Shown: piece by piece, positions 1-62,864 of the stretch | Layout: each line of letters starts with the position of its first letter | How positions within the stretch are numbered: position 1 is the first letter of the stretch | Assembly (NCBI GenBank): GCA_002269645.1 | Contig: NIVC01003699.1 | Coordinates: 1 to 64,000, forward strand | DNA from: Macrostomum lignano | Lineage: Eukaryota | DNA: 64,000 nt | Direction of reading: 5' to 3' | The notes under the pieces: generated by a model | Told to the model about the DNA's origin: nothing | Databases searched by the model: none | The model's input: only the letters and a program-made list of their open reading frames with translations | Program-made: the position numbers and the translations under genes

Positions 1-50
1 GGCTACGACTCGACAGGCTGGGTGGATGAAAAGACTTAAGAAAGGTTTAG
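1..50 (+). CDS. 3' end of probable retroviral-type integrase (chromodomain tail)
   Basis: Reads GYDSTGWVDEK, then DLRKV* if one A is added to the A4 run. Resembles the Maverick integrase chromodomain end (KW.GY....SW+...DL) and lies just upstream of the penton gene. Confidence 0.5.
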
Positions 51-87
51 CTTTTGCGCATCTCTTCTCATGAGGTTTAACATTATA

Positions 88-893
88 ATGCGAACTATTT
101 TGATTAACAGTGAGCATGCTGAAGGTACTCCTAGTGACTTTAATTTTTACTGCCTTCACCTATTTACTTGGATCGAAATGTGGACTATGAGGCAGGTCTG
201 GCTGAAATCCATCTGCCTGCTGCATGTTCAATGTTGACGAGCCTTACTGCTTCACTGTCTCAGATGGAAGAGAGCATGAGGCCCTGGTTCTTCAACCCGG
301 ACGCTTTGCTAGAGTGGAGGAGCTGGTGGAGCGTTTGAATCAGCTGCTGGCCAACTCTGATTCGCTATTCTTTGATGCAATGAGTGACAGGGAGTCTGAG
401 ATGGAGGCTGATGAGTCCGGCCTGATGGGCGTAGTGGCAACAGGGAATTCGGTATGAAGTTCGAAATCCGCAACTCACGAACTGTGGTGCACAACAACAC
501 TGCGAGAGCAGAGATGTTTCTCCCATCCAGCAAAATTCTGCATTGGCTGGGATTTGGAAACCAGGCTGTGAAAATCCAGCCAGGGAGCCGCGTGTCCGAG
601 CACTGCATTGGCTGCCGCGCACCAGCTTAATCAATGTGCACTGCAGTATCGTTGAGTCAACTAATTGCAACTTGGGCTCCCTGTTGAGAACAGTTGGAAT
701 GAAAGCCGGCATTGAATGGGGCAACTATCAAACAAAAATATTTAAGAAAACAATATTCTTCCCGATTCAACGAATCAGTCTTCTTCACAGCATTCGAGTT
801 CAGCTGCGTGACATCTATGGTTGCCCACTGATTGCCCAGACACTCAGCCCTGTTCTGCTCACAGTTCAGATTCGGGAGAAACGCATTCAATGA
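88..893 (+). CDS. Minor capsid protein (penton), split by four -1 frameshifts
   Basis: ATG at 88. Segments MRTILINSE..PSDFNF / LPSPIYLD..YEAGLAEIHLP / FNVDEPY.. / ..INVHCSIVE..LLRTV..SIRVQLRDIYG.P....VLLTVQIR match the Polinton penton pattern. Shifts near 149, 222, 445 and ~590. Confidence 0.8.
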
Positions 894-1279
894 ACTACCA
901 GCAGCTGATCCAGCAATATTCGGGGGTGAGGACAGGACACGAAAAGCCTGCACTCTATGGCTGTGGGAGCTTTCCGGGGATCATGACATACCAGCCTCCG
1001 CCAGCGGCTACATCATCATTCTCAACGCATAGCAATGTCAGGCGCAAAAGAAATACTGAAGCAAGTCCGAAACGATTGAAGAAGAAGAAGTACACCCGAA
1101 AGGCAACTGGTAGAGATCGCACCAATAAGAGGTGCAATGAAAGAAATCCGAGCAAGGCTAGTAGGAAAAAGCTTAAGAATAGGAAGACGAAAGCAAAGAA
1201 GAATGCAGCAGGCGGAGGAAAGCGAAAGCGAAAAGTCAGCAAGAAAACTGTGAAACGCGTGCTCGACTCTCTGTCATAG
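890..1279 (+). CDS. Small Lys/Arg-rich putative core (DNA-condensing) protein
   Basis: ATG overlaps the penton stop (ATGA); 129 aa with a very basic C-terminal half; LYGCG fits the adenain site (M/L/I)xGx-G; sits between penton and major capsid. Confidence 0.7.
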   Translation: MNYQQLIQQYSGVRTGHEKPALYGCGSFPGIMTYQPPPAATSSFSTHSNVRRKRNTEASPKRLKKKKYTRKATGRDRTNKRCNERNPSKASRKKLKNRKTKAKKNAAGGGKRKRKVSKKTVKRVLDSLS

Positions 1280-1281
1280 AC

Positions 1282-2565
1282 ATGGCTTACGGATTCAATC
1301 CCAGACTTGATTTATTTAAGACGCCTGTTCTACAAACCTGCATTGAAAAAGCTACTTATGTTGATATTCACCCAGTAAATTCCATTACTGCAAACTCCCC
1401 CATTGAATTTGACTGCCACCAATCTGCCGATGAATACACTGATTTGCTTAATTCTTTTCTTTATATTCGCTGCCGCCTTGTGAGACTGGATGGGGGTTTG
1501 CTGAGGGAGGATGTTCGAGATGGAGATGGCATCATCACCGAGCGCAGAGACAGTGACGTGCACCCAGAAAACTTTGTTTTGTCTACAGCCTTCTCAGATG
1601 TAATTGTGAGCATTAACCAGCGAGTGGTATCTGGTGGAGACCAGCTCTATCCCTACCATGCGTACTTCAAAGCACTAATGAGCTCATCTGATGCCCAGCA
1701 ACTAAAACTTTACCCTGCTGGCTTCCTGGAGCCGAACTCGGCAGCTGAAAAGCACACGGAGAGCCACAGGGAATCCCGATGGATGGAGTATGCGGGACCG
1801 CTCTTCAGCGATGTTTTCCAATGCCCAGTGTTTCTGCTAAACAATCTGCACTTGCACATCAAACTGGTGCCCAGCGATGGGGCCTTTGCCATCAGAAGCC
1901 CGAATGCAAACAACGCGGCATACCGCATGGAAATCTCTCACTGCATTTTGCATCTTCGCCGAGTCAAAGTGGTGCCCCACATCAGCCTGGCCCACGAGCA
2001 GGGGTTGACAAACCAAAATGCACTGTATCCCATCGAGCGAACTGAAATGCAGAACTTCATCCTACCCCAGGGCATTCAATCTAAAAACATTGAAGGATTC
2101 ACTCATGGAAAATTGCCGAAGTTCATCATGCTGGCCTTCGTGAGCCACCGTGCATTCAACGGTCATCATCACGCGAGCCCGTTCCAGTTCCAGAGCTTCA
2201 ACCTTAGCCAGTTGGCTCTAAAGAAAGGTGGGGAAACCGTGTGCCACGGTGCCTTCACACCTGAAAACAATTCCTTTGTAAGAGAATACTTACACTACCT
2301 GAAAAGCTGTCAATCTGCAAGCCACACGAACTCGGTTCCGTGGATCCCTTACCAGCTCTTCTCCAACAACAGCACGGTGTTTGCATTCGATCTCACACCA
2401 GAGGGAGCGGCTCTGTGGTACGGACAGAAGGAGGGCAACCTGCGGTTGGAGATTCGCTTCCGACAGGCTCTGGACGAAACGGTGTCCCTGATCGCTCTGT
2501 GCCTGTATGACTCGCTGATTGAGGTCACCAAGCACCGGGAGCTTTTGCTGGACTATTCCTCTTAA
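1282..2565 (+). CDS. Major capsid protein (double jelly-roll, Polinton PY)
   Basis: 427 aa uninterrupted. N-terminal LDLFKTPVLQTCIE..YVDIHPV.SI...SPIEF....DEYTDL, internal GKLPKFIMLAFV..AFNG....PF.FQSFNL and C-terminal FAFDLTP..GNLRLEIRF..L match the Maverick capsid pattern. Confidence 0.93.
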   Translation: MAYGFNPRLDLFKTPVLQTCIEKATYVDIHPVNSITANSPIEFDCHQSADEYTDLLNSFLYIRCRLVRLDGGLLREDVRDGDGIITERRDSDVHPENFVLSTAFSDVIVSINQRVVSGGDQLYPYHAYFKALMSSSDAQQLKLYPAGFLEPNSAAEKHTESHRESRWMEYAGPLFSDVFQCPVFLLNNLHLHIKLVPSDGAFAIRSPNANNAAYRMEISHCILHLRRVKVVPHISLAHEQGLTNQNALYPIERTEMQNFILPQGIQSKNIEGFTHGKLPKFIMLAFVSHRAFNGHHHASPFQFQSFNLSQLALKKGGETVCHGAFTPENNSFVREYLHYLKSCQSASHTNSVPWIPYQLFSNNSTVFAFDLTPEGAALWYGQKEGNLRLEIRFRQALDETVSLIALCLYDSLIEVTKHRELLLDYSS

Positions 2566-2570
2566 CTGGC

Positions 2571-3080
2571 ATGGAAGCAATTCAACTACTCCATCTCGCC
2601 AGAAAATTTTTGTCTTGCCGAAAATTCTTCATCATTACTTTACATTCACGCTATAAAAATGTATTGTCTTTGAGTCTAAAAAGAAAATATCGATCAATTC
2701 CCTTTGAAAACAAGTTTGTGTTTATCCTACTACAGCACAATGGCTCATTTGGTCATTGGGTGGTGTGCTATGCTGGGCAAGGAAATTGCATTGAGCTGTT
2801 CAACTCCCTCGGCTGGGAACCTGAAATTTTATCTGTGGTTTATAATTTGTTTCGAGAGATTAAAACAACTGGCTTTTATCTCCGAAGCAATATAAACAGA
2901 TTTCAATGTGCTAACTCTAATAAATGCGGAGTGTTTTGCATCTATTTTGCTTATCAAAAGTTGCTGATCAATCGGTCATTTGAGGGTATTTTAAAGAGTT
3001 TGCACTCTAATGAAAAAAATCATTTGAATGATAGAATCTTACAGAGGTTTGAAGCCAACTTAAGAAAAAGATGTCCGTGA
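2571..3080 (+). CDS. Adenain/Ulp1-like cysteine protease (capsid maturation)
   Basis: GHWV (His), ELFNSLG (usually YFDSxG), FQ....NKCGVFCIYF (oxyanion Gln and catalytic Cys). Confidence 0.88.
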   Translation: MEAIQLLHLARKFLSCRKFFIITLHSRYKNVLSLSLKRKYRSIPFENKFVFILLQHNGSFGHWVVCYAGQGNCIELFNSLGWEPEILSVVYNLFREIKTTGFYLRSNINRFQCANSNKCGVFCIYFAYQKLLINRSFEGILKSLHSNEKNHLNDRILQRFEANLRKRCP

Positions 3081-3109
3081 TTTTCTAGAACTATATTTAT
3101 GCATTAGAC

Positions 3110-3756
3110 ATGGGAGAAAAGCGAGTTTGCTACGATATCCGCCTCAGGCAGGGAAGCTGCATGATTGTCTGCGGGCCCACCAATGCAGGAAAAACAACCT
3201 TTGTCAAACACCTGATCCAGTACAGAGACGTCATGTTTGATGTGAAGCCTGGCAGAGTTCTGTGGTACTATGGGATCTCACAGGCAGGCCATGCAGAACT
3301 GAGCAGCCTAGGTGTGCAGCTGCGCCAGGGATTCCCCACCAACATCGAGGCAGCACTTAGGCCCAATGACCTGGTTGTTTTCGATGACTTAATAGAGGAA
3401 ACTTCAAATTCTGCTTCAATGCGAAATTTTTTCACAGGAATCGCACATCACTTGCCGTGCTTTTTGGTGATGCTGACTCAGAATATATTTTTCAAGGGAA
3501 AAGAGTCGCGAACAATGAGCTTGAATGTAATGTACTTAGCTATCTTGAAAAACCCCGAGACCAGCTGCAGATTGCAGCACTGGGCAGGCAGTGCTTTACA
3601 GAGAAGCCCGGCTTTCTGCTGTCAGTGTTCAAGCACGTGACCGCGCAGAACAGGGGAGCCTACCTGTTCCTAGACTTTCACCCATCAACTCCCGATGAGC
3701 TGCGAGTGCGGGCCAGAATTTTGCCCAACCAGCGACCCCATCTTGTATTTGCTTAA
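3110..3756 (+). CDS. A32/FtsK-like packaging ATPase, one -1 frameshift near 3555
   Basis: Walker A GPTNAGKT, Walker B VVFDD, LTQNIF, R.MSLN..Y..ILKNP, then RDQLQI..LGRQ..YLFLDF...TPDELRVR in the shifted frame. Confidence 0.92.
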
Positions 3757-3798
3757 GAAAGTGAAGCTTGTTTTTTATCGGCTATTGTTTTCATCGCT

Positions 3799-4722
3799 AT
3801 GGAAGTGCTTGATTCACATGCAAGTCTTTTTGCGGTTCTTGCGTCACCTAAATATACCGTGCGCTTCAAGCAGCTGTTGATAAAAAATTGTCCAAAAGAA
3901 GTGCGTTATTTTCTTGTTGAGGCCTGTCATAATCTCTTACAAAACAATTTATCGTTTTCGATCGATGAAAAAGCTGTTCTTGCAAAGTCAAAAGAGATAA
4001 TTCGAAAAATTACTCAGCAGAGAAGAAAGATAGACTTGTTAAAGGCTGGCTTCATCAAAATACTCCCGATTCTGCTTAAGCTGGTAAGAAAAAGAAGCAA
4101 AATGAACAAATTTTCAGAAATGGTTCTGATTTCTAAAGCAGAGTATGAGATGTTAGTGCAGAATTTGAAGCCAAATGAGACTAGCACTGACGCTGACTTG
4201 AAGCAGGCTCAGAAGAAATGCGATGATATCTTGTATGCCGAGGATTATCCAGAAGATGTGAAAACCGCCATGTATCAAAGTGCAATGCAAAGTTTGCTGG
4301 CCAAGCGCAAGCACGCTGGAAAAGAAGGATCACGAAATACTGAAGCCAAGTTGATGAAAATAGAGACACCCCAGATGAACACCTGGGAAGAGAAGATCAG
4401 CAAGTCGGTGCCACAGAAATTCAAAACCAGGGCTCGCAGTCTATGGACGATCCTGTCCACCAATCCAGAGCTGATTGGAGTTTGTGAAAACGGAGAGGTG
4501 GAAATCGCAGGCACGTCAATCCCTTCCTCAAACATACTGGACTTGATTCAGCACGCAGTGAGGGATTCGTCATGTGAGCGTGAACCAGTTGGGTGGAACG
4601 AGTTCATCGATTTGCTGCAGCAGAAAAAGCTTAATGTTCCGCTTTCGCTATTGGTAAATCAGTTAAGAAGAAAATGGCAACCAGCAGAGGGGGTGAACTG
4701 GAGAAAGAACAGGAGAGTCTAG
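3799..4722 (+). CDS. Conserved Maverick protein(s); appears to be two usually separate small genes in one ORF
   Basis: N-half ..EACHNLLQNNL....K..L.K.K..IR...KAGFIKILP; internal Met at 4102; C-half GEVEIAG..IPSSNILDLI....PVGWNEF..LL...NVP resembles a recurrent Polinton ORF. Confidence 0.7.
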   Translation: MEVLDSHASLFAVLASPKYTVRFKQLLIKNCPKEVRYFLVEACHNLLQNNLSFSIDEKAVLAKSKEIIRKITQQRRKIDLLKAGFIKILPILLKLVRKRSKMNKFSEMVLISKAEYEMLVQNLKPNETSTDADLKQAQKKCDDILYAEDYPEDVKTAMYQSAMQSLLAKRKHAGKEGSRNTEAKLMKIETPQMNTWEEKISKSVPQKFKTRARSLWTILSTNPELIGVCENGEVEIAGTSIPSSNILDLIQHAVRDSSCEREPVGWNEFIDLLQQKKLNVPLSLLVNQLRRKWQPAEGVNWRKNRRV

Positions 4723-4773
4723 TCAAGGGGTACGGGAGCAACACAGCCTGGCTGAAACTGCCTGGCAGAAAAG

Positions 4774-4781
4774 TATATAAG
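4774..4781 (+). promoter_or_regulatory. TATA box upstream of the DnaQ-like/TBP unit
   Basis: TATATAAG, 41 nt before ATG 4822, in the short gap after ORF 3799-4722. Confidence 0.55.
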
Positions 4782-4821
4782 AAGGTGGACTGACTCCGAA
4801 ATTTCGAGGGAAAGCTGCATC

Positions 4822-5672
4822 ATGAACTACATTGACTTCCAAGGATTCCCGTGCAACAGCACAAGCAAAAATTTGTTGTGAAGGAGTTGGCAGTTGTTCA
4901 AGTCAGAGCGGGAAGCTACCGAATTGCTCACCATGTGTACGCACCTCCGTATCCATGGGAGAGAGTCTCACCTGACATGCGAGTTTGCTACAGACAGCTA
5001 TCAAAGAGTCTGCACCAGTTTAAGTGGAATGATGGAACCCGTCCGTACATGGAACTGGCGGAAGACATTCTGAGGATTGCCAGTGGTCCGATCTGGACAA
5101 ATGGGGAAAGGAAGTCTATTTTCCTGACTGAGCTGCTTGGTAGACAGGTTTATAACCTAGAAGATTTGGGAGCACCCTCGACTGAAGATTCAGATACTGG
5201 CTGTGCAGTGAGAAATTCGTTGCTGCACTACAGTTGGCTTAAGCCAAAGTTCTGCATCAACTTAAGAAGCGAGCAGTGTCCGTGGCACACGAGCAGTAAA
5301 GTTGGCAGAAGCAGATTTGGTGAAGAAGTTGACGATCGAAATGAGCCCACCAGCTACAGCCCTAAGAGTGAGCAATCTGGTTGGCGGAGTAGATCTGAGG
5401 CTGGATGGTGGCAGGGGCGCTCAGCTACCTCTACGGGAACTGGCTCTCAGCATGGCTCATGTGATCTACCGGCCCGTCTGGCCCCGGGTGCTCATCAAGC
5501 GGATGCGAAGTCCCAGAGTGACTCTGCTACTCTACCCTACTGGGCAACTGAGCATCTGCGGTGCCAAGACCCACGCAGACGCCAAAAGGGCTGCCCGTCG
5601 CTTCGTGGCTATGCTGCATCGGAGAGTGCCAGCTCAACTGCTGCCTCCTCAAGCCATTTGTGTTCGGATTAA
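4822..5672 (+). CDS. DnaQ/DEDD-fold-like Polinton accessory protein; -1 frameshift at ~4850; true 3' end probably ~5320-5340
   Basis: MNYIDFQGF / ..FVVKELAV..H.Y.PPYPW...H.FKWNDG..PY...G..K..FL......NLEDLG.P..CPWH pattern. The last ~110 codons are low-complexity and overlap the TBP gene in another frame. Confidence 0.65.
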
Positions 5673-5931
5673 AACTATTACTGCTCATGGTAAATTTAAC
5701 TTCTGCAATGCTTTGTCCCTCACAAATCTTGCTGCCTCTGGCATACTGTCTTACGCTGAGTATGAGCCCGAGTCGTTCTCTGCTCTAATTTATACATTAC
5801 GTTATTGTAAATGCTTGTTATTTCATACTGGTTCTTTTGTTCTTAGTGGAGCAAAATCTATGAGCATGTTGCGCTTCGACCTTTCTACGTTACATAGTTT
5901 AATCAGCCAGTTTATCACCTATCAAAAATAA
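5341..5931 (+). CDS. TBP: Divergent intronless TATA-binding-protein homolog (196 aa core)
   Basis: Two TBP repeats: VSNLVGGVDL..LRELAL..YRP..KRMRSPRVTLLLYPTGQLSICGAKT..AARRF and YEPESFSALIY..LLFHTGSFVLSGAKS, versus canonical QNIV.TVNL..IRIREP.TTALIFSSGKMVCTGAKS..AARKY / YEPELFPGLIY..LLIFVSGKVVLTGAK. AATAAA overlaps the stop. ORF is open from TTG 5302; first ATG is 5341. Confidence 0.9.
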   Translation: MSPPATALRVSNLVGGVDLRLDGGRGAQLPLRELALSMAHVIYRPVWPRVLIKRMRSPRVTLLLYPTGQLSICGAKTHADAKRAARRFVAMLHRRVPAQLLPPQAICVRIKTITAHGKFNFCNALSLTNLAASGILSYAEYEPESFSALIYTLRYCKCLLFHTGSFVLSGAKSMSMLRFDLSTLHSLISQFITYQK

Positions 5932-6659
5932 ACAAAAAGTGTGTTCCGTTTGTTCTTGAATGTTTGCGTAAATTCATTACGGAAAACCGCATCTTTAAAT
6001 TATTTATTTTTATTTTAAAAAATAAGTTTTAACTAAAAAATTAAAGGTGAAATGAGCATAGAATAATTGAAAACTGGGAGCTAAAACGCGTAATCAGATC
6101 TCTCCCTCACAAAAACAGAAAAAGGGCATAGAACCCATTCCAAAAAGGTTCTGCCAAAAGCGAAATTGCTTAGATTGATACACGTGAATGAAGAAATTAA
6201 TTAATCAAACTCGACTGACACTCATACATGTAACTGGACCGCAAAATTACAGATAGAGGCAAGAAATTTCAACAAAAGCAATGCAAAGAAATGTTTTAGC
6301 ATCATGTTAAAAAATTAATAAATGAACATAAAACTCAGCAATAAAAATTTCAATACATTAAATTTACTGACTTTGCAATTTAATATTACGAGTAGAAATC
6401 GTGCAGTTACAAGGTACTGAAATAAAATTACTAATAAATTAATAGCTAGCATTAAGACTTCAGACAAAAAGTTCAAAAAGACACTAAAATTACGGTGAAA
6501 CAGGGGAGGCAAATTGCTGCAACTTCTTCTATCTGAGATAGCAAAATTGAGACAGCATATAATTTAAACGGATAAAGGCGAGTATATGTTTGAAGAAACC
6601 AAAGACTAAATATTCAGAATAAAATGTGTAGAGGCCGTGTGATAAAAAGTTATACTCAG

Positions 6660-9600: not shown

Positions 9601-10493
9601 ACAGCACACCAATGACCACCAGCTGAGTTCTCGTTCGTGGATGGTGGAAGAAACATCAGCAGGACAACTGTTCGTCCTCTCATGGTAGCTGCGCTTGGCT
9701 GTCGGAGGACTTCAGCAGCTTCATTCTCCCAGGTGAAAACAGTGAAGCAAAGGGTTGGATTTAATTCCTCGACAGCAGACAGATCGTACAAATTGATCGG
9801 CAGACTCAGTCCCGTAATGTTAATCTCATCTAGCCATTCGGTGTACGAGGATTCTCGTTGAGCTGACTTCTTAATACGGCAGTGATCTTTGTGAAGAAAG
9901 GCAAGGCACGCGTAAACAAAGCAATTTTCACCGCTGCTAGGAGGAGAAATGACGGCCTTCTTTTGAAAAAGCGCAGTCGGCAAACTAAACCCAGCCGCAT
10001 GCCCCGAATAGTAGGGAGTTCGAACAGCGAGGGCAGAGCAAAGGTCGAAGAAATTTATTTTGTCAATGGCCCATCCACTGCCATTAGCGTTGTACACGTC
10101 TACTCTCTGCTCTAACTCTGCAAATTGCTGCCTCCACCAGTCATCAAATTCCTGCACATCAACCAGCATACAAAGATTTGTACTCATCCATTTGTTTTCA
10201 ACATTGACTGCTTCTGCTGCCTGCACCCGAATCATGCGCACGTTTAGCTTAATTTGTGCTCTTAGCGAACAGTTGTCAAAGGAGTCAAGACGAACTTCGA
10301 GATACTGCAGAACCGCATGTTTGACCAGGTCTAGAAACTCGAATGGATCAATGTCAGCTGTTGGGGCGAAGCGATGAATCTGCAGTACATCATCGTGGGC
10401 ACTGTTCACCAAGGAGATAACACATGAAGACCCTAAAAATAAAATCGAGAGATAAGATAGTGAAAATCGAGAAACATAAACTGAGAGTCTCAT
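6660..10493 (-). CDS. polB: Protein-primed family B DNA polymerase with OTU-like, C2H2 and endonuclease VII-like domains
   Basis: 1277 aa uninterrupted. GSGW; OTU-like NCFVYACL..GHW; CERC..H; ExoI YADFE; CHYC..DHDH.SGEFRGAACAQCN; ExoII FHNLKGYD; IDS..FL; motif A DANNLYG; motif B KLKNNALFGKT; motif C GGDTDS; KAKG. Confidence 0.97.
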   Translation of the reverse strand: MRLSVYVSRFSLSYLSILFLGSSCVISLVNSAHDDVLQIHRFAPTADIDPFEFLDLVKHAVLQYLEVRLDSFDNCSLRAQIKLNVRMIRVQAAEAVNVENKWMSTNLCMLVDVQEFDDWWRQQFAELEQRVDVYNANGSGWAIDKINFFDLCSALAVRTPYYSGHAAGFSLPTALFQKKAVISPPSSGENCFVYACLAFLHKDHCRIKKSAQRESSYTEWLDEINITGLSLPINLYDLSAVEELNPTLCFTVFTWENEAAEVLRQPSAATMRGRTVVLLMFLPPSTNENSAGGHWCAVSNINRLLNSKAHLYQRKWCERCLLSFHTSKAFDEHCEDICEPGGIFVQEELPDEDHNVLRFTAWEKTISPPFIVYADFEALNAPHTGQQTEAGSSTVKLTEHVAVAAGYLVVHRAGLTGLSPIGVDNDVNIFVSENPKKCVSDFLQSLEQLAREVYGWNTEFSHQTAIRTEAAKQRFRDAISCHYCGSGFDSESGKHWDHDHLSGEFRGAACAQCNMQARLKRRFLPVVFHNLKGYDLHLIMSTALDLMDGWRISVIPQNPEQFVSMKVDFKIDEYERGGKTKPLFFTIQFIDSNQFLNASLAQLIKNLPEEECTITSLLKSKFPLLSPEVLFRKCTFPYDYLTNSNVLEDTELPSKEQFYNVLTKSHCSDEDYRHAQKAWHEFQVKTLKEYMLCYLELDIRQLADVFENFRKLSLRDDGLDPVHFVSTPGLSFASALKSLKSRIELITDSQMYATFERGIRGGMSFVNIHRVSANSPDIRKNLEAADNQTICNDNDDDDDDCHDEGADQAVPTELLAVDANNLYGQALTMNLPANGFRWLSEDELQLWTEDRIRGLKISDPIAYLLDVDLLYPAEIHSTTEDLPFAPEKEAPKFKEFPAYMQQLWRQITGDKAAYRSAEKLLLTCHDKQSYVLHSAILAFYLSHGMKIKRINRMIEYKQEPIFADYVNMNSVKRAAATNSFEKDYYKLKNNALFGKTMENVRKRRDIRICTNTAKAKVLASKPSIKNFIIITDSLSIIEFQKTKVKLDRPIFIGQCVLDYSKLIMYELFYDKLKPWLEQEGARVRLCGGDTDSLFLCIQNMDVQSEVLPLLKAKKLLDTSNYSPEHPLFSNELKARLGCIKDEGAGARYLEWLLLRPKLYSFLASTATAEKKKAKGIQGCVVKKEIAHSDYLRVFNDLSSMSVIIHRIASIQHRLFTLQQRKCALSIWEDKRAWLAPNYSLPFGHFQLLHPESSQLQQHVNATASRKRRREEDYEFNK

Positions 10494-10589
10494 GATTGCT
10501 TATAAATCCAGCTCAATTAGCTATTCATAATAATCGATGTCTGTATTCAGAATCGAGGAGGGTGTTTTTGGATGTATACAATCGATATA

Positions 10590-10800
10590 GGTGTGCAGAG
10601 GTGTGCGAAGTCGAGGTGGGGTGTCCAGAGTCGAGGTGTGGTGTCCAGAGTCGAGGTGGGGTGTCCGGAGTCGAAGAAGGGATGTGCAGAGTCGAGGAGG
10701 GGGTGTGCGGAGTCGAGGAGGGGGTGTGCGGAGTCGAGGAGGGGGTGTGAAGAGTCGAGGAGGGGGTGTGCAGAGTCGAGGACGGGGATGTGCAGAGTCA
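10590..10800. repeat. ~21-bp G-rich minisatellite upstream of pPolB
   Basis: About 10 copies of AGAGTCGAGG(AG)GGGGTGTGC variants. Confidence 0.85.
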
Positions 10801-11778: not shown

Positions 11779-12750
11779 TCAAGCGAATACGGATCCCCCT
11801 CCAAAGTCAATTGAGTACTCGCCCACAACGCTACTCGGTAGGACGAATTGAAGGCAAACTGACGGTGCAGCCATCGGTTCAGCGGCTTGGACTCCTGCTG
11901 ATTGTTGAACCACCGGTGGGGTAGCATGAGGTTCGACTCCTGCTGATTGTGGAAACTCTGGTACCACCGGTGGGGTAGCATGAGGTTCGAAATCTCGTAG
12001 GAGATCAGACAGGCTGGCATCCGCCATCATTCCAGCCATATTTTTTCCAGCGACTGGAACAGCCCTGTGCGGTGGCTGCTGCTCGACCGTGGCTTTTTCG
12101 TTCGTCTCCTCCGGCTCCAACTCGTGCTCCTCAAAGAAAGCCGTGTCCAATTCTGGCGGAGCAACAAAATCAGCGGCAGCAGCATCATCGTCATGGCGAT
12201 TTACCGGTGTCTGAAGACTGAGAGCACCAGCCGCTGGAACGTCAACGCTGGCAGCTTGATGGTCGATGCCAGCAGGTCCAGGAGCAGCAGCTGGATGGTC
12301 GACGCTGGCAGGTCCAGGAAGGCTGGCAACATCAGCTGGATGCTGATCTGCAGCAGCAAGTGCAACGGAAATCAAATCAAAAGTACATGTAGTTGAAATT
12401 ATTGCAGATTGATTTCGCACACCTTGAATCGTCTGGCTCAGGGTGCTGACCGGGGCTCGATGACGCTCGATCATGTTGAGTTGCTCCTGGCGGTGGGCGG
12501 CCTCCAGTACAGTAAAGCGGGCTCGTTCGATGCTATCAGGCGAGCTCCAATTAATGATGGTGTGATTTTTATGGGCCCGAACTTGGCGGCGCACATTGAA
12601 CAGCTCAGTTGTCTGGCACTCGTGGCAAAGCAACCAGCGACTTATAATGCAGCTGTCTTTTTTGTTATGGAGCTTTAACCCACCGAGCTCACATGAATTG
12701 CAGCTGATGCACACCTCGTGCACGTAGGATGGACACCGAGATTTATTCAT
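11779..12750 (-). CDS. Accessory protein: N-terminal Cys/His Zn-binding (B-box-like) region plus Ala/Pro/acidic low-complexity tail
   Basis: 323 aa ORF; C....H..C..C..C...LLCHEC...HKNH; acidic FFEEHELEPEE; LSDLL; internal duplication EPHATPPVV; TATATAAG on the minus strand at 12826-12833. Confidence 0.7.
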   Translation of the reverse strand: MNKSRCPSYVHEVCISCNSCELGGLKLHNKKDSCIISRWLLCHECQTTELFNVRRQVRAHKNHTIINWSSPDSIERARFTVLEAAHRQEQLNMIERHRAPVSTLSQTIQGVRNQSAIISTTCTFDLISVALAAADQHPADVASLPGPASVDHPAAAPGPAGIDHQAASVDVPAAGALSLQTPVNRHDDDAAAADFVAPPELDTAFFEEHELEPEETNEKATVEQQPPHRAVPVAGKNMAGMMADASLSDLLRDFEPHATPPVVPEFPQSAGVEPHATPPVVQQSAGVQAAEPMAAPSVCLQFVLPSSVVGEYSIDFGGGSVFA

Positions 12751-12825: not shown

Positions 12826-12833
12826 CTTATATA
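12826..12833 (-). promoter_or_regulatory. TATA box for ORF 11779-12750
   Basis: CTTATATA on + (TATATAAG on -), 76 nt upstream of ATG 12750. Confidence 0.5.
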
Positions 12834-14009
12834 CCCACTTCAACCAAATCTGTGTTAATAAAAACATAGCCGCTATGTTTTCAGCTTTGCTATGTTTACA
12901 GTCAGCCACCCAATGTCCAATGATTTCATCAGCGCATCCAGGTATTGAGCCCTTGTTAAATTCCCGCACGCCCCGCTAAATTCTTTTGAATACGCCGCCA
13001 ACTTTACCCCACCCAGTCGAGGGTGGCAATAAAACTACTGATAACTGAGCACTCTCTCCTTTCAGCAACAAAGCCGCCGCCGCCGCCAGCTCCCAGACAG
13101 CGGGAGAGAGAGAGGCTTGGCTACCACTATTTTTGTTTACAGAAGTTTGTTATTACCGATAAAATTATATAATAAAGTATTAGTATAATACTGAATACAA
13201 TAAAATACCGCTGATATTTGCCAATCGTTCAACACAATTTCTAGAGATTCCCCTAGCTCGCCTCTGTGCATACTTGCGGATTCCCCCATGAGGTGCCTAT
13301 GTACTCTCATTAGGAGTCTACGGAATTCCCATGGCTTTGCCTGCGGCAGAGTTGAGCTATGCAAACACATAGGCGCCCTTCTGATCCGGGCCCACGGAAT
13401 TTCCGTGGCTTTCCCTGCGGCAGAGTTGTGTTATCCTCTACTACTCACAGTGAATTCCACGCAATGGAGACTTTCTGCGTATATTTAGCCTTCATATATA
13501 TATATTGTAAAATGACAAATACTTTATTAACTGGTAGTGATTACATATGCCGACAAAATAGTTAATATTCGTTGTAAAGTCTTATCATCATCTATTAGTG
13601 CCAGCATTGAGTGCGGCTCAAGATATTTAATAGATTGGAAAATTTTATATGCAAGTCTCTATTATAATTATAAATGAAGTGCGCGCGTATTGCTACTGAT
13701 AGTCTGTGGTCAGTAGCGAGATGAAGATGCGCGAATACTGACGAAATTGTTTTTTTCTTAACAAATTCCATCAGTCGGTGGCAAATATTCCATTAAATTT
13801 ATTCTCCCCAGATTGCTCAGCAGCTCGTGAATTTGACTGACAACCTCAGTCCGCATATAGCTAGCTAATTGGCCTTTCGAAAGCCAGGCGAATTGTATAA
13901 AAATGAACCTGTCACTTCCAAATTAACTCGATACTACGAGCCGTAGAATAGATTCTAATTTCTGCATCAGTTGCGTTTTTCTTGCAAGTTAAAACATTTT
14001 AGCACCCCG

Positions 14010-15748: not shown

Positions 15749-62864
<47,116 letters not shown>

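Follow-up and report, generated by a model that had tools for sequence, protein, structure and literature searches.

Architecture of the Polinton

The window, the whole 64,000-nt stretch of Macrostomum lignano DNA analysed here, opens within a Polinton of about 16 kb that is truncated by the start of its contig (C3699); the left terminal inverted repeat (TIR) and the integrase, which lie outside the window, were observed in other copies. Combining the window with the ends of those copies, the gene order is TIR, PC4-like, integrase, penton-like, core-like, MCP-like, protease, ATPase, a conserved slot termed PW, DEDD-like and TATA-binding protein (TBP), and beyond TBP, on the opposite strand, a protein-primed family B DNA polymerase (pPolB) and an Oncoid-type ORF precede the right TIR.

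The forward strand of the window carries a penton/minor-capsid-like gene (70–893), here broken over three frames at about 150–615, a Lys/Arg-rich core-like ORF (890–1279), an intact MCP-like ORF of 427 amino acids (1282–2565), an adenain-like cysteine protease (2571–3080), an A32/FtsK-type packaging ATPase (3110–3756) that is split across two frames near 3550–3640, the PW-slot ORF (3799–4722), a single frame here and two frames in most other copies, a DEDD/Maelstrom-like ORF (4822–5672) with a broken 5′ end, and the TBP ORF (5341–5931). The reverse strand encodes an intact polymerase of 1277 amino acids (10493–6660) and an Oncoid-like protein of 323 amino acids (11779–12750) with LxCxE at residues 40–44, three CxxC motifs and an acidic tail. 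This copy retains open frames for TBP, the MCP-like protein, protease and polymerase, and has disrupted penton-like, ATPase and DEDD-like genes. The right TIR (13291–13445) is about 155 nt long and ends ACTACT; element termini are AGTAGT...ACTACT, with a TIR of the same length in all three same-subfamily copies having both ends. Copy C1297 has an exact 6-bp target duplication, and C211 has one that is exact past four extra bases; C1113 matches at 5/6 positions and C759 has none.

The polymerase ORF matches phrog_1907 DNA polymerase (E 7e-10), shows polymerase motifs, is of the protein-primed type by sequence and contains an endonuclease VII domain (PF02945, above cut-off). The integrase in C1297 scores above the cut-off for rve (PF00665, 47.6 bits) and also has a chromodomain. 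Protease (Peptidase_C5, E 0.003) and ATPase (Pox_A32, E 0.06, weak) fall below their cut-offs and sit in the expected slots, and the Oncoid-like ORF has a 30%-identical relative in the C759 subfamily. A PC4-like coactivator domain, another component of the basal Pol II apparatus besides TBP, is encoded both by the window's family (family 1) and by a second family described below (L031 7738–8478, L045 7961–8722, L053 564–998; PF02229 above cut-off in family 1). We presume the penton-like, core-like, MCP-like, PW and DEDD labels from position and pattern, protein libraries having given no confirmation: no library match was obtained for the penton-like gene or for the MCP-like ORF (labelled by size and slot), searches of those libraries for double and single jelly-roll capsid proteins gave no match, and a single-sequence model of the MCP-like ORF was unusable (pLDDT 30). 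The ESM Atlas placed the DEDD-like ORF in a Maelstrom-type cluster at 0.88, a lead only as to its identity, and returned nothing usable for the 323-aa ORF.

TIRs, a 6-bp target duplication, an rve integrase with chromodomain and pPolB are shared with Polintons/adintoviruses, and the probable adenain-like protease, the probable packaging ATPase and an Oncoid-type ORF upstream of PolB are likewise common to adintoviruses (PMC8502044). The polymerase ORF begins (10420–10500, reverse strand) with codons resembling a pyrimidine tract with an AG acceptor, such that the true 5′ end may be spliced on from an exon further upstream. Short tandem repeats of about 16–21 nt at 10600–10790, which separate the polymerase start from the Oncoid-type gene, are a possible enhancer or origin. 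The host flank contains minisatellites at 28150–33500, 37470–38700 and 56480–59100, with units of 8/12, 31, 20 and 28 nt.

An intact TBP core encoded by the element

The TBP ORF is intronless and intact, encoding 196 amino acids that comprise both TBP repeats with no N-terminal extension. It is convergent with the polymerase ORF, and its stop is overlapped by an AATAAA (5927–5932, forward strand), the other sense AATAAA of the cassette being at 2919. The PF00352 profile aligns to the ORF over two segments (E 4.8e-26; 90.8 bits, cut-off 22.9), confirming membership of the TBP family, and a sequence search of the PDB returned 35 TBP sequences at E <= 5e-12. An AlphaFold2 model built from an alignment of the element TBP with 85 other TBPs (pLDDT 94.3, pTM 0.85) has the strand and helix order of TBP and superposes on solved TBPs in Foldseek with TM 0.75–0.82, consistent with the saddle fold. 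An initial sequence-only reading of this DNA had proposed such a two-repeat, intronless ORF with a polyadenylation-type hexamer at its stop and a convergent polymerase, and each of these elements is borne out.

With yeast residue numbering anchored on the PDB TBP alignment, the window protein retains F190, F207, N69 and the E186-P187-E188 stirrup, as well as both GAK motifs, and replaces F99 with P48 (W47 standing at R98), F116 with Y65 and N159 with T112. The canonical set of four intercalating phenylalanines and two central asparagines is therefore incomplete (F99P, F116Y, N159T). The host TRF2-like protein lacks F99, F116 and F190; the element TBP keeps F190 and so does not have the TRF2 residue pattern, YEPELHP included. 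These residues agree with what the same reading had described, namely an intact C-terminal Phe pair and YEPE stirrup, W/P and Y at the N-terminal pair, Thr for the second Asn, and GAK motifs rather than a TRF2-type pattern. Its description of a shortened N-terminal stirrup does not hold, as Y43–I52 aligns with yeast Y94–I103 with no gap.

A fixed slot under purifying selection

A search of the 764-Mb genome assembly (150 of 227 candidates scored) gave at least 151 matches to the element TBP. Among the best 30 of these loci, the window included, all 30 have a DEDD-like ORF upstream and 28 have pPolB downstream. At least 80 of 98 MCP loci (102 matches minus 4 fragments) have a TBP match 2–12 kb downstream, and 4 of the other 18 lack the contig room for one; the TBP list used in this comparison comprised 133 of the 150 listed, with split fragments and two family-2 rows left out, and at least 99 of the 133 are near full length (>=170 codons). 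Across nine subfamily representatives selected from 24 distinct ORFs, dN/dS ranges from 0.13 to 0.44 in all 36 pairs, indicating purifying selection in family 1; by half, the values are 0.05–0.45 for codons 1–110 and 0.00–0.32 for codons 111–185 (26 computable pairs). The gene thus recurs inside the element elsewhere in the genome, between fixed neighbours, and is a real, selected and fixed element gene.

The second Polinton family, represented by C738, is distant from the first (integrase 55% identical, MCP 41%, ATPase 41%, protease 28%, DEDD 32%, TBP 35%) and has the identical PW-DEDD-TBP order, with PC4 instead of pPolB as the convergent neighbour. This family has 39 matches. In three pairs with few changes, family-2 dN/dS is 0.76–1.22, values that by themselves lend no support to selection and that probably reflect decay after insertion.

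The closest named protein relatives are all Macrostomum lignano entries. Outside the host genome, viral_contigs yielded no relative with gene context for the TBP of either family or for MCP or integrase, nor did a metagenome_contigs search with the family alignment, and 11 IMG/VR loci with TBPs had zero matches to 12 other element proteins. Relatives P0002–P0004, P0006, P0044 and P0155 are on contigs of <=3 kb, and L087 is an uninformative 1.5-kb fragment with a decayed TBP-like stretch. At L014 (C3017) and in protein P0009, a frame shift fuses the DEDD-like domain with most of TBP. In the database gene models P0007 and P0008, which are probably annotation artefacts, the N-terminal half of the TBP is spliced into host genes.

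Old capture and mosaic history

In a 28-row tree (LG+G4, prone to long-branch attraction), the seven element TBP rows form a single clade (support 100/99), and 15 element rows group with 98* support in a 63-row quick tree. An approximately unbiased (AU) test rejects a clade of element and host TBP (p 0.016); a clade of element and host TRF2-like protein has p 0.16 and is unrejected, although the free tree does not group the two. P0011 and P0029, short TBPs with no N-terminal extension, group with the element clade at 99/96, a placement that we do not trust; they are possibly TBPs of other mobile elements, and possibly an instance of long-branch attraction.

The host genome has its own TBP and TRF2-like genes, three loci each and separate from the element. 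A neutral passenger, either a host retrogene or a misassembly, is an explanation that an intronless ORF might invite, the host TBP core being intronless as well. We regard it as extremely improbable: the element TBP is only about 28% identical to host TBP, the AU test rejects their joint clade, and both a retrogene and a misassembly are contradicted by the slot fixed in two families with constant neighbours, by purifying selection and by the number of near-full-length matches given above. The proposal that the element captured a TBP accordingly stands as an old event and is not supported as a recent acquisition from host TBP, and the capture predates the split of families 1 and 2.

Since then the gene has acquired a mosaic structure. 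In four subfamilies with near-identical cassettes, TBP dS is 0.06–0.11 across the N-terminal half and exceeds 1 across the C-terminal half, identity within the gene drops near 5660–5700 from about 98% to about 55%, and the polymerases of the same copies are 52–58% identical to that of the window. The mid-gene drop and the divergent polymerases therefore place the crossover point of module exchange within the TBP gene. The polymerase module carries the C-terminal repeat along with it, such that several distinct C-terminal halves are found on near-identical N-terminal halves, every one of them retaining YEPE, F190, K203 and F207.

In both families the tail of the DEDD-like ORF overlaps the N-terminal TBP repeat by about 330 nt in another frame. 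Its stop lies at +320 to +332 of TBP in 19/19 family-1 ORFs checked, at +386 in the family-2 reference and elsewhere in three family-2 variants. The recombination crossover sits at the end of this overlap.

An altered DNA-binding face

All 15 element TBPs compared retain N69, V71, T112, L114, E186-P187-E188, F190 and F207, and with them the two-repeat saddle, EPE stirrup and GAK motifs that characterize cellular TBP/TRF2 (PF00352). They differ from cellular TBP in replacing F99, F116, V122, T124, Q158, N159, V161, P191 and V203 and in having no N-terminal extension: F116Y, V122S/T, T124C, Q158K, N159T, V161T/S, V203K and the loss of P191 and F99 are common to 15/15. Two such signatures are absent from 133/133 other TBP representatives. 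Despite 35% overall identity, the window and family-2 proteins are identical at 12 central saddle positions (69, 71, 112, 114, 116, 120, 122, 124, 158, 159, 161 and 203), and helix H2 varies; this combination argues for selection on the altered DNA face. The changed face suggests that the element TBP may have an altered DNA specificity, as the sequence-only reading had proposed: the changed residues themselves are seen in every element copy, and the shift in specificity is what we infer from them.

In studies of cellular TBP, recognition of the 5′ half of the box falls to the C-terminal repeat, with Pro191 as a constraint on the 5′ end; I194, V203 and L205 face TATA position 2, and cavities in the wild-type protein admit G at positions 3 and 6 (PMC1636458). 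The stirrup is the site of TFIIB contacts (PMC10005294).

That reading had also offered a decoy as an alternative to redirection of Pol II. Here TBP would titrate TFIIB, TAF1, Mot1 or NC2, or occupy host TATA boxes, in a form of host shut-off that does not direct element transcription. The EPE stirrup present in 15/15 would suit such a role, and the loss of F99, R196 and K211 may weaken DNA binding; a decoy would, however, leave unexplained the conserved box described below, and the conservation of the derived DNA face across both families, with H2 free to vary, lowers its likelihood. We consider it decidedly unlikely.

A candidate promoter box

A variant box, NNTAAGAA, lies 33–147 nt ahead of seven cassette genes, all on the forward strand. 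As CTTAAGAA it precedes the penton-like gene (35–42, in the final integrase codons), the MCP-like ORF (1172–1179, within the core-like ORF), the ATPase (3059–3066), the PW-slot ORF (3752–3759, containing the ATPase stop in both families) and TBP (5261–5268, within the DEDD-like ORF); as TTTAAGAA it precedes the basic core-like ORF (741–748). Ahead of the DEDD-like ORF is a dual box, TATATAAGAA (4774–4783), with a canonical and a variant register, of which the C106 subfamily has the variant only. In two subfamilies the integrase is also preceded by CTTAAGAA, 232 and 44 nt upstream. The protease gene had no variant box in any copy examined.

The core hexamer TAAGAA ranks first of 2787 hexamers in positions 1–5931 for concentration 12–160 nt before nine starts: all nine sense copies fall inside that interval, with one antisense copy (p 8e-7, about 0.002 corrected), the interval having been set after the motif was seen and intervals of 100–300 nt giving p <= 3e-4. 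When the encoded proteins and element codon usage are taken into account, 0.94 copies would be expected in the final 160 nt of upstream genes, where six are found (P 4e-4), whereas outside gene tails there are 4 against 3.5. A subfamily at 64–76% local identity retains 7/9 boxes, being those nearest the penton-like, core-like, MCP-like, ATPase, PW, DEDD-like and TBP genes (the TBP box taken from a sister copy), and another retains 6/8 boxes examined. The TAAGAA copies at 4085 and 4664 are lost in both of these subfamilies and were set aside as unconserved.

Family 2, which as a relative of family 1 is a partly independent test of the box, has 5/6 sense TAAGAA copies within 12–160 nt of a start and none antisense (p 0.002); taken by itself, this family ranks the hexamer third of 2952. 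Distances are similar between families 2 and 1 for the core (138 versus 147 nt) and MCP (105 versus 108 nt) genes; the sixth copy, 10 nt from the penton ATG, is too close for a TATA box. The family-2 ATPase has TAAGAG, and its TBP and second PW ORF have canonical TATAAAA(G/A). Before TBP, the canonical TATAAAAG of family 2 occupies the same DEDD-like codons as CTTAAGAA in family 1, and this homology fixes the register: positions 1–2 are free (seen as CT, TT, CC, TA, CA and AT), T3-A4-A5 are kept and position 6 is G. Among nine aligned family-2 boxes, with two canonical ones set aside, three begin with TATAAGAA, which host TBP might read. Across 23 aligned boxes we found no initiator-like consensus downstream.

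The terminal PC4-like and Oncoid-like genes have canonical TATATAA(A/G). The TATATAAG boxes to which the sequence-only reading had pointed as the target do exist, at 4774 (forward strand) before the DEDD-like ORF and at 12826–12833 (reverse strand) before the Oncoid-like ORF; they are canonical, precede terminal and DEDD-like genes and are unlikely to be what the element TBP reads. On these sequence grounds, its likely target is instead the variant NNTAAGAA box before virion and packaging genes, which is statistically supported and conserved and which we regard as a candidate binding site.

Another factor could read the box, leaving the element TBP some other job: host TBP or TRF2, or, with TAAG as a baculovirus-type initiator, the RNA polymerase of a helper virus. 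Virophages likewise use the late motif of their helper, TAAG occurs within every variant box, and initiation at TAAG, where baculovirus polymerase starts at the second base (PMC8789824), suits the family-2 box 10 nt from its ATG. The bare TAAG is, however, unenriched (16 seen versus 14.6 expected; 14 versus 17.8 in family 2) and occurs 25 times antisense in family 1, against the enrichment of TAAGAA (9 versus 1.7; 6 versus 1.2 in family 2), and a canonical TATA stands at the homologous pre-TBP site in family 2. As for a host reader, the cavities of wild-type TBP can admit G6, and G6 therefore needs no new TBP, but CT, TT or CC at positions 1–2 are poor for the wild-type protein (PMC1636458). 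Altogether we judge a different reader of the box unlikely.

The box might also act in RNA, as a weak poly(A) signal or in trans-splicing between tandem genes, with TBP as a non-specific booster of element transcription. The position of four boxes, which coincide with or are close to the upstream gene's end, would fit, as would the status of AAGAAA as a weak poly(A) variant and the occurrence of trans-splicing in this host group. Against this, three conserved boxes are each embedded in an ORF, at 105, about 150 and about 410 nt from the respective stops, so that cleavage there would cut the ORF, and the cassette ends in a canonical AATAAA. An RNA-level role is, in our assessment, very unlikely.

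A proposed late-gene switch

We favour, as a reading that is somewhat better than even, a switch in which the element TBP, its specificity shifted, drives the late genes through the variant box. In this model, the terminal PC4-like and Oncoid-like genes would first be transcribed by host TBP and Pol II from TATATAA boxes. The element TBP would then be expressed from an internal promoter within the DEDD-like ORF, by way of TATAAAAG in family 2 and of CTTAAGAA in family 1, the latter creating positive feedback. The protein would bind NNTAAGAA with F190 and F207 kinking the 5′ end, and its EPE stirrup would recruit host TFIIB and Pol II to the penton-like, core-like, MCP-like, ATPase, PW, DEDD-like and integrase genes. 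The loss of P191 together with V203K would relax TATA positions 1–2; the G at position 6, to which we take V122 to be assigned, may be fitted by the central and N-terminal changes (N159T, V161T/S, V122S/T, T124C, F116Y and the loss of F99). The variable spacing between box and ATG noted above (33–147 nt) counts against such a switch.

A broader version, which we hold more tentatively and at somewhat less than an even chance, is that animal Polintons run a self-contained early-to-late cascade. Host TBP, acting at canonical TATA, would switch on an E1A-like Oncoid together with a PC4-like coactivator, an orthogonal element TBP would read NNTAAGAA before every virion gene, and crossover within the TBP gene would shuffle the half responsible for recognizing the box at its 5′ end.

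Relation to known systems

A TBP label already appears in a figure legend (Fig. 5, MELD-virus map) of Starrett et al. 2021 (PMC8502044; preprint 10.1101/697771), and the novelty of a Polinton TBP is accordingly lower than the sequence-only reading had assumed. In the accessible portion of that paper TBP is a legend label only, with no promoter motif, selection or mechanism attached; its main text there has no occurrence of 'promoter' and no Macrostomum, and one supplementary file searched gave no match. The accessible parts of PMC11662393 and PMC12220804 held nothing relevant to a Polinton TBP mechanism or promoter. In a literature search with most subscription journals outside its scope, we found no description of a function for a Polinton TBP, of a Polinton late-promoter box or of Macrostomum Polintons.

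Nucleocytoviricota with TBP homologues carry their own RNA polymerase, unlike this Polinton, which encodes none. The homologues of Heterosigma akashiwo virus and Mimiviridae (BFVD) share the TBP fold at <=22% identity, and the structural scores of the element TBP are weaker to viral TBP-like proteins than to cellular TBPs.

A functional parallel may be the herpesvirus vTBP system, in which a viral TBP fold with a changed DNA face acts with host Pol II on a variant TATA before late genes, as with KSHV ORF24 on TATTWAA late promoters (PMC12529657). ORF24, a large multidomain mimic, makes direct contact with Pol II through its N-terminal domain and works in a six-protein complex (PMC12529657), whereas the Polinton TBP is a bare 196-aa core, recognizable in sequence and with the TFIIB stirrup kept; it is an analogue of ORF24/BcRF1/UL87 rather than a member of that group.

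Implications

How endogenous Polintons time their capsid genes would have a concrete, testable answer in a TBP that is under selection and whose matching box precedes the virion genes. Such a pairing bears on whether endogenous Polintons still go through a regulated viral cycle, and speaks for a nuclear programme that is autonomous and needs no helper virus. If the switch holds, the herpesvirus strategy would have a second, independent example, carried out by a minimal protein that seemingly keeps the normal TFIIB route. The switch would also provide a natural altered-specificity TBP, and with it a model for the rewiring of TBP specificity, in which residue changes could be mapped base by base on the box, in a host that is a laboratory flatworm lineage carrying many young copies.
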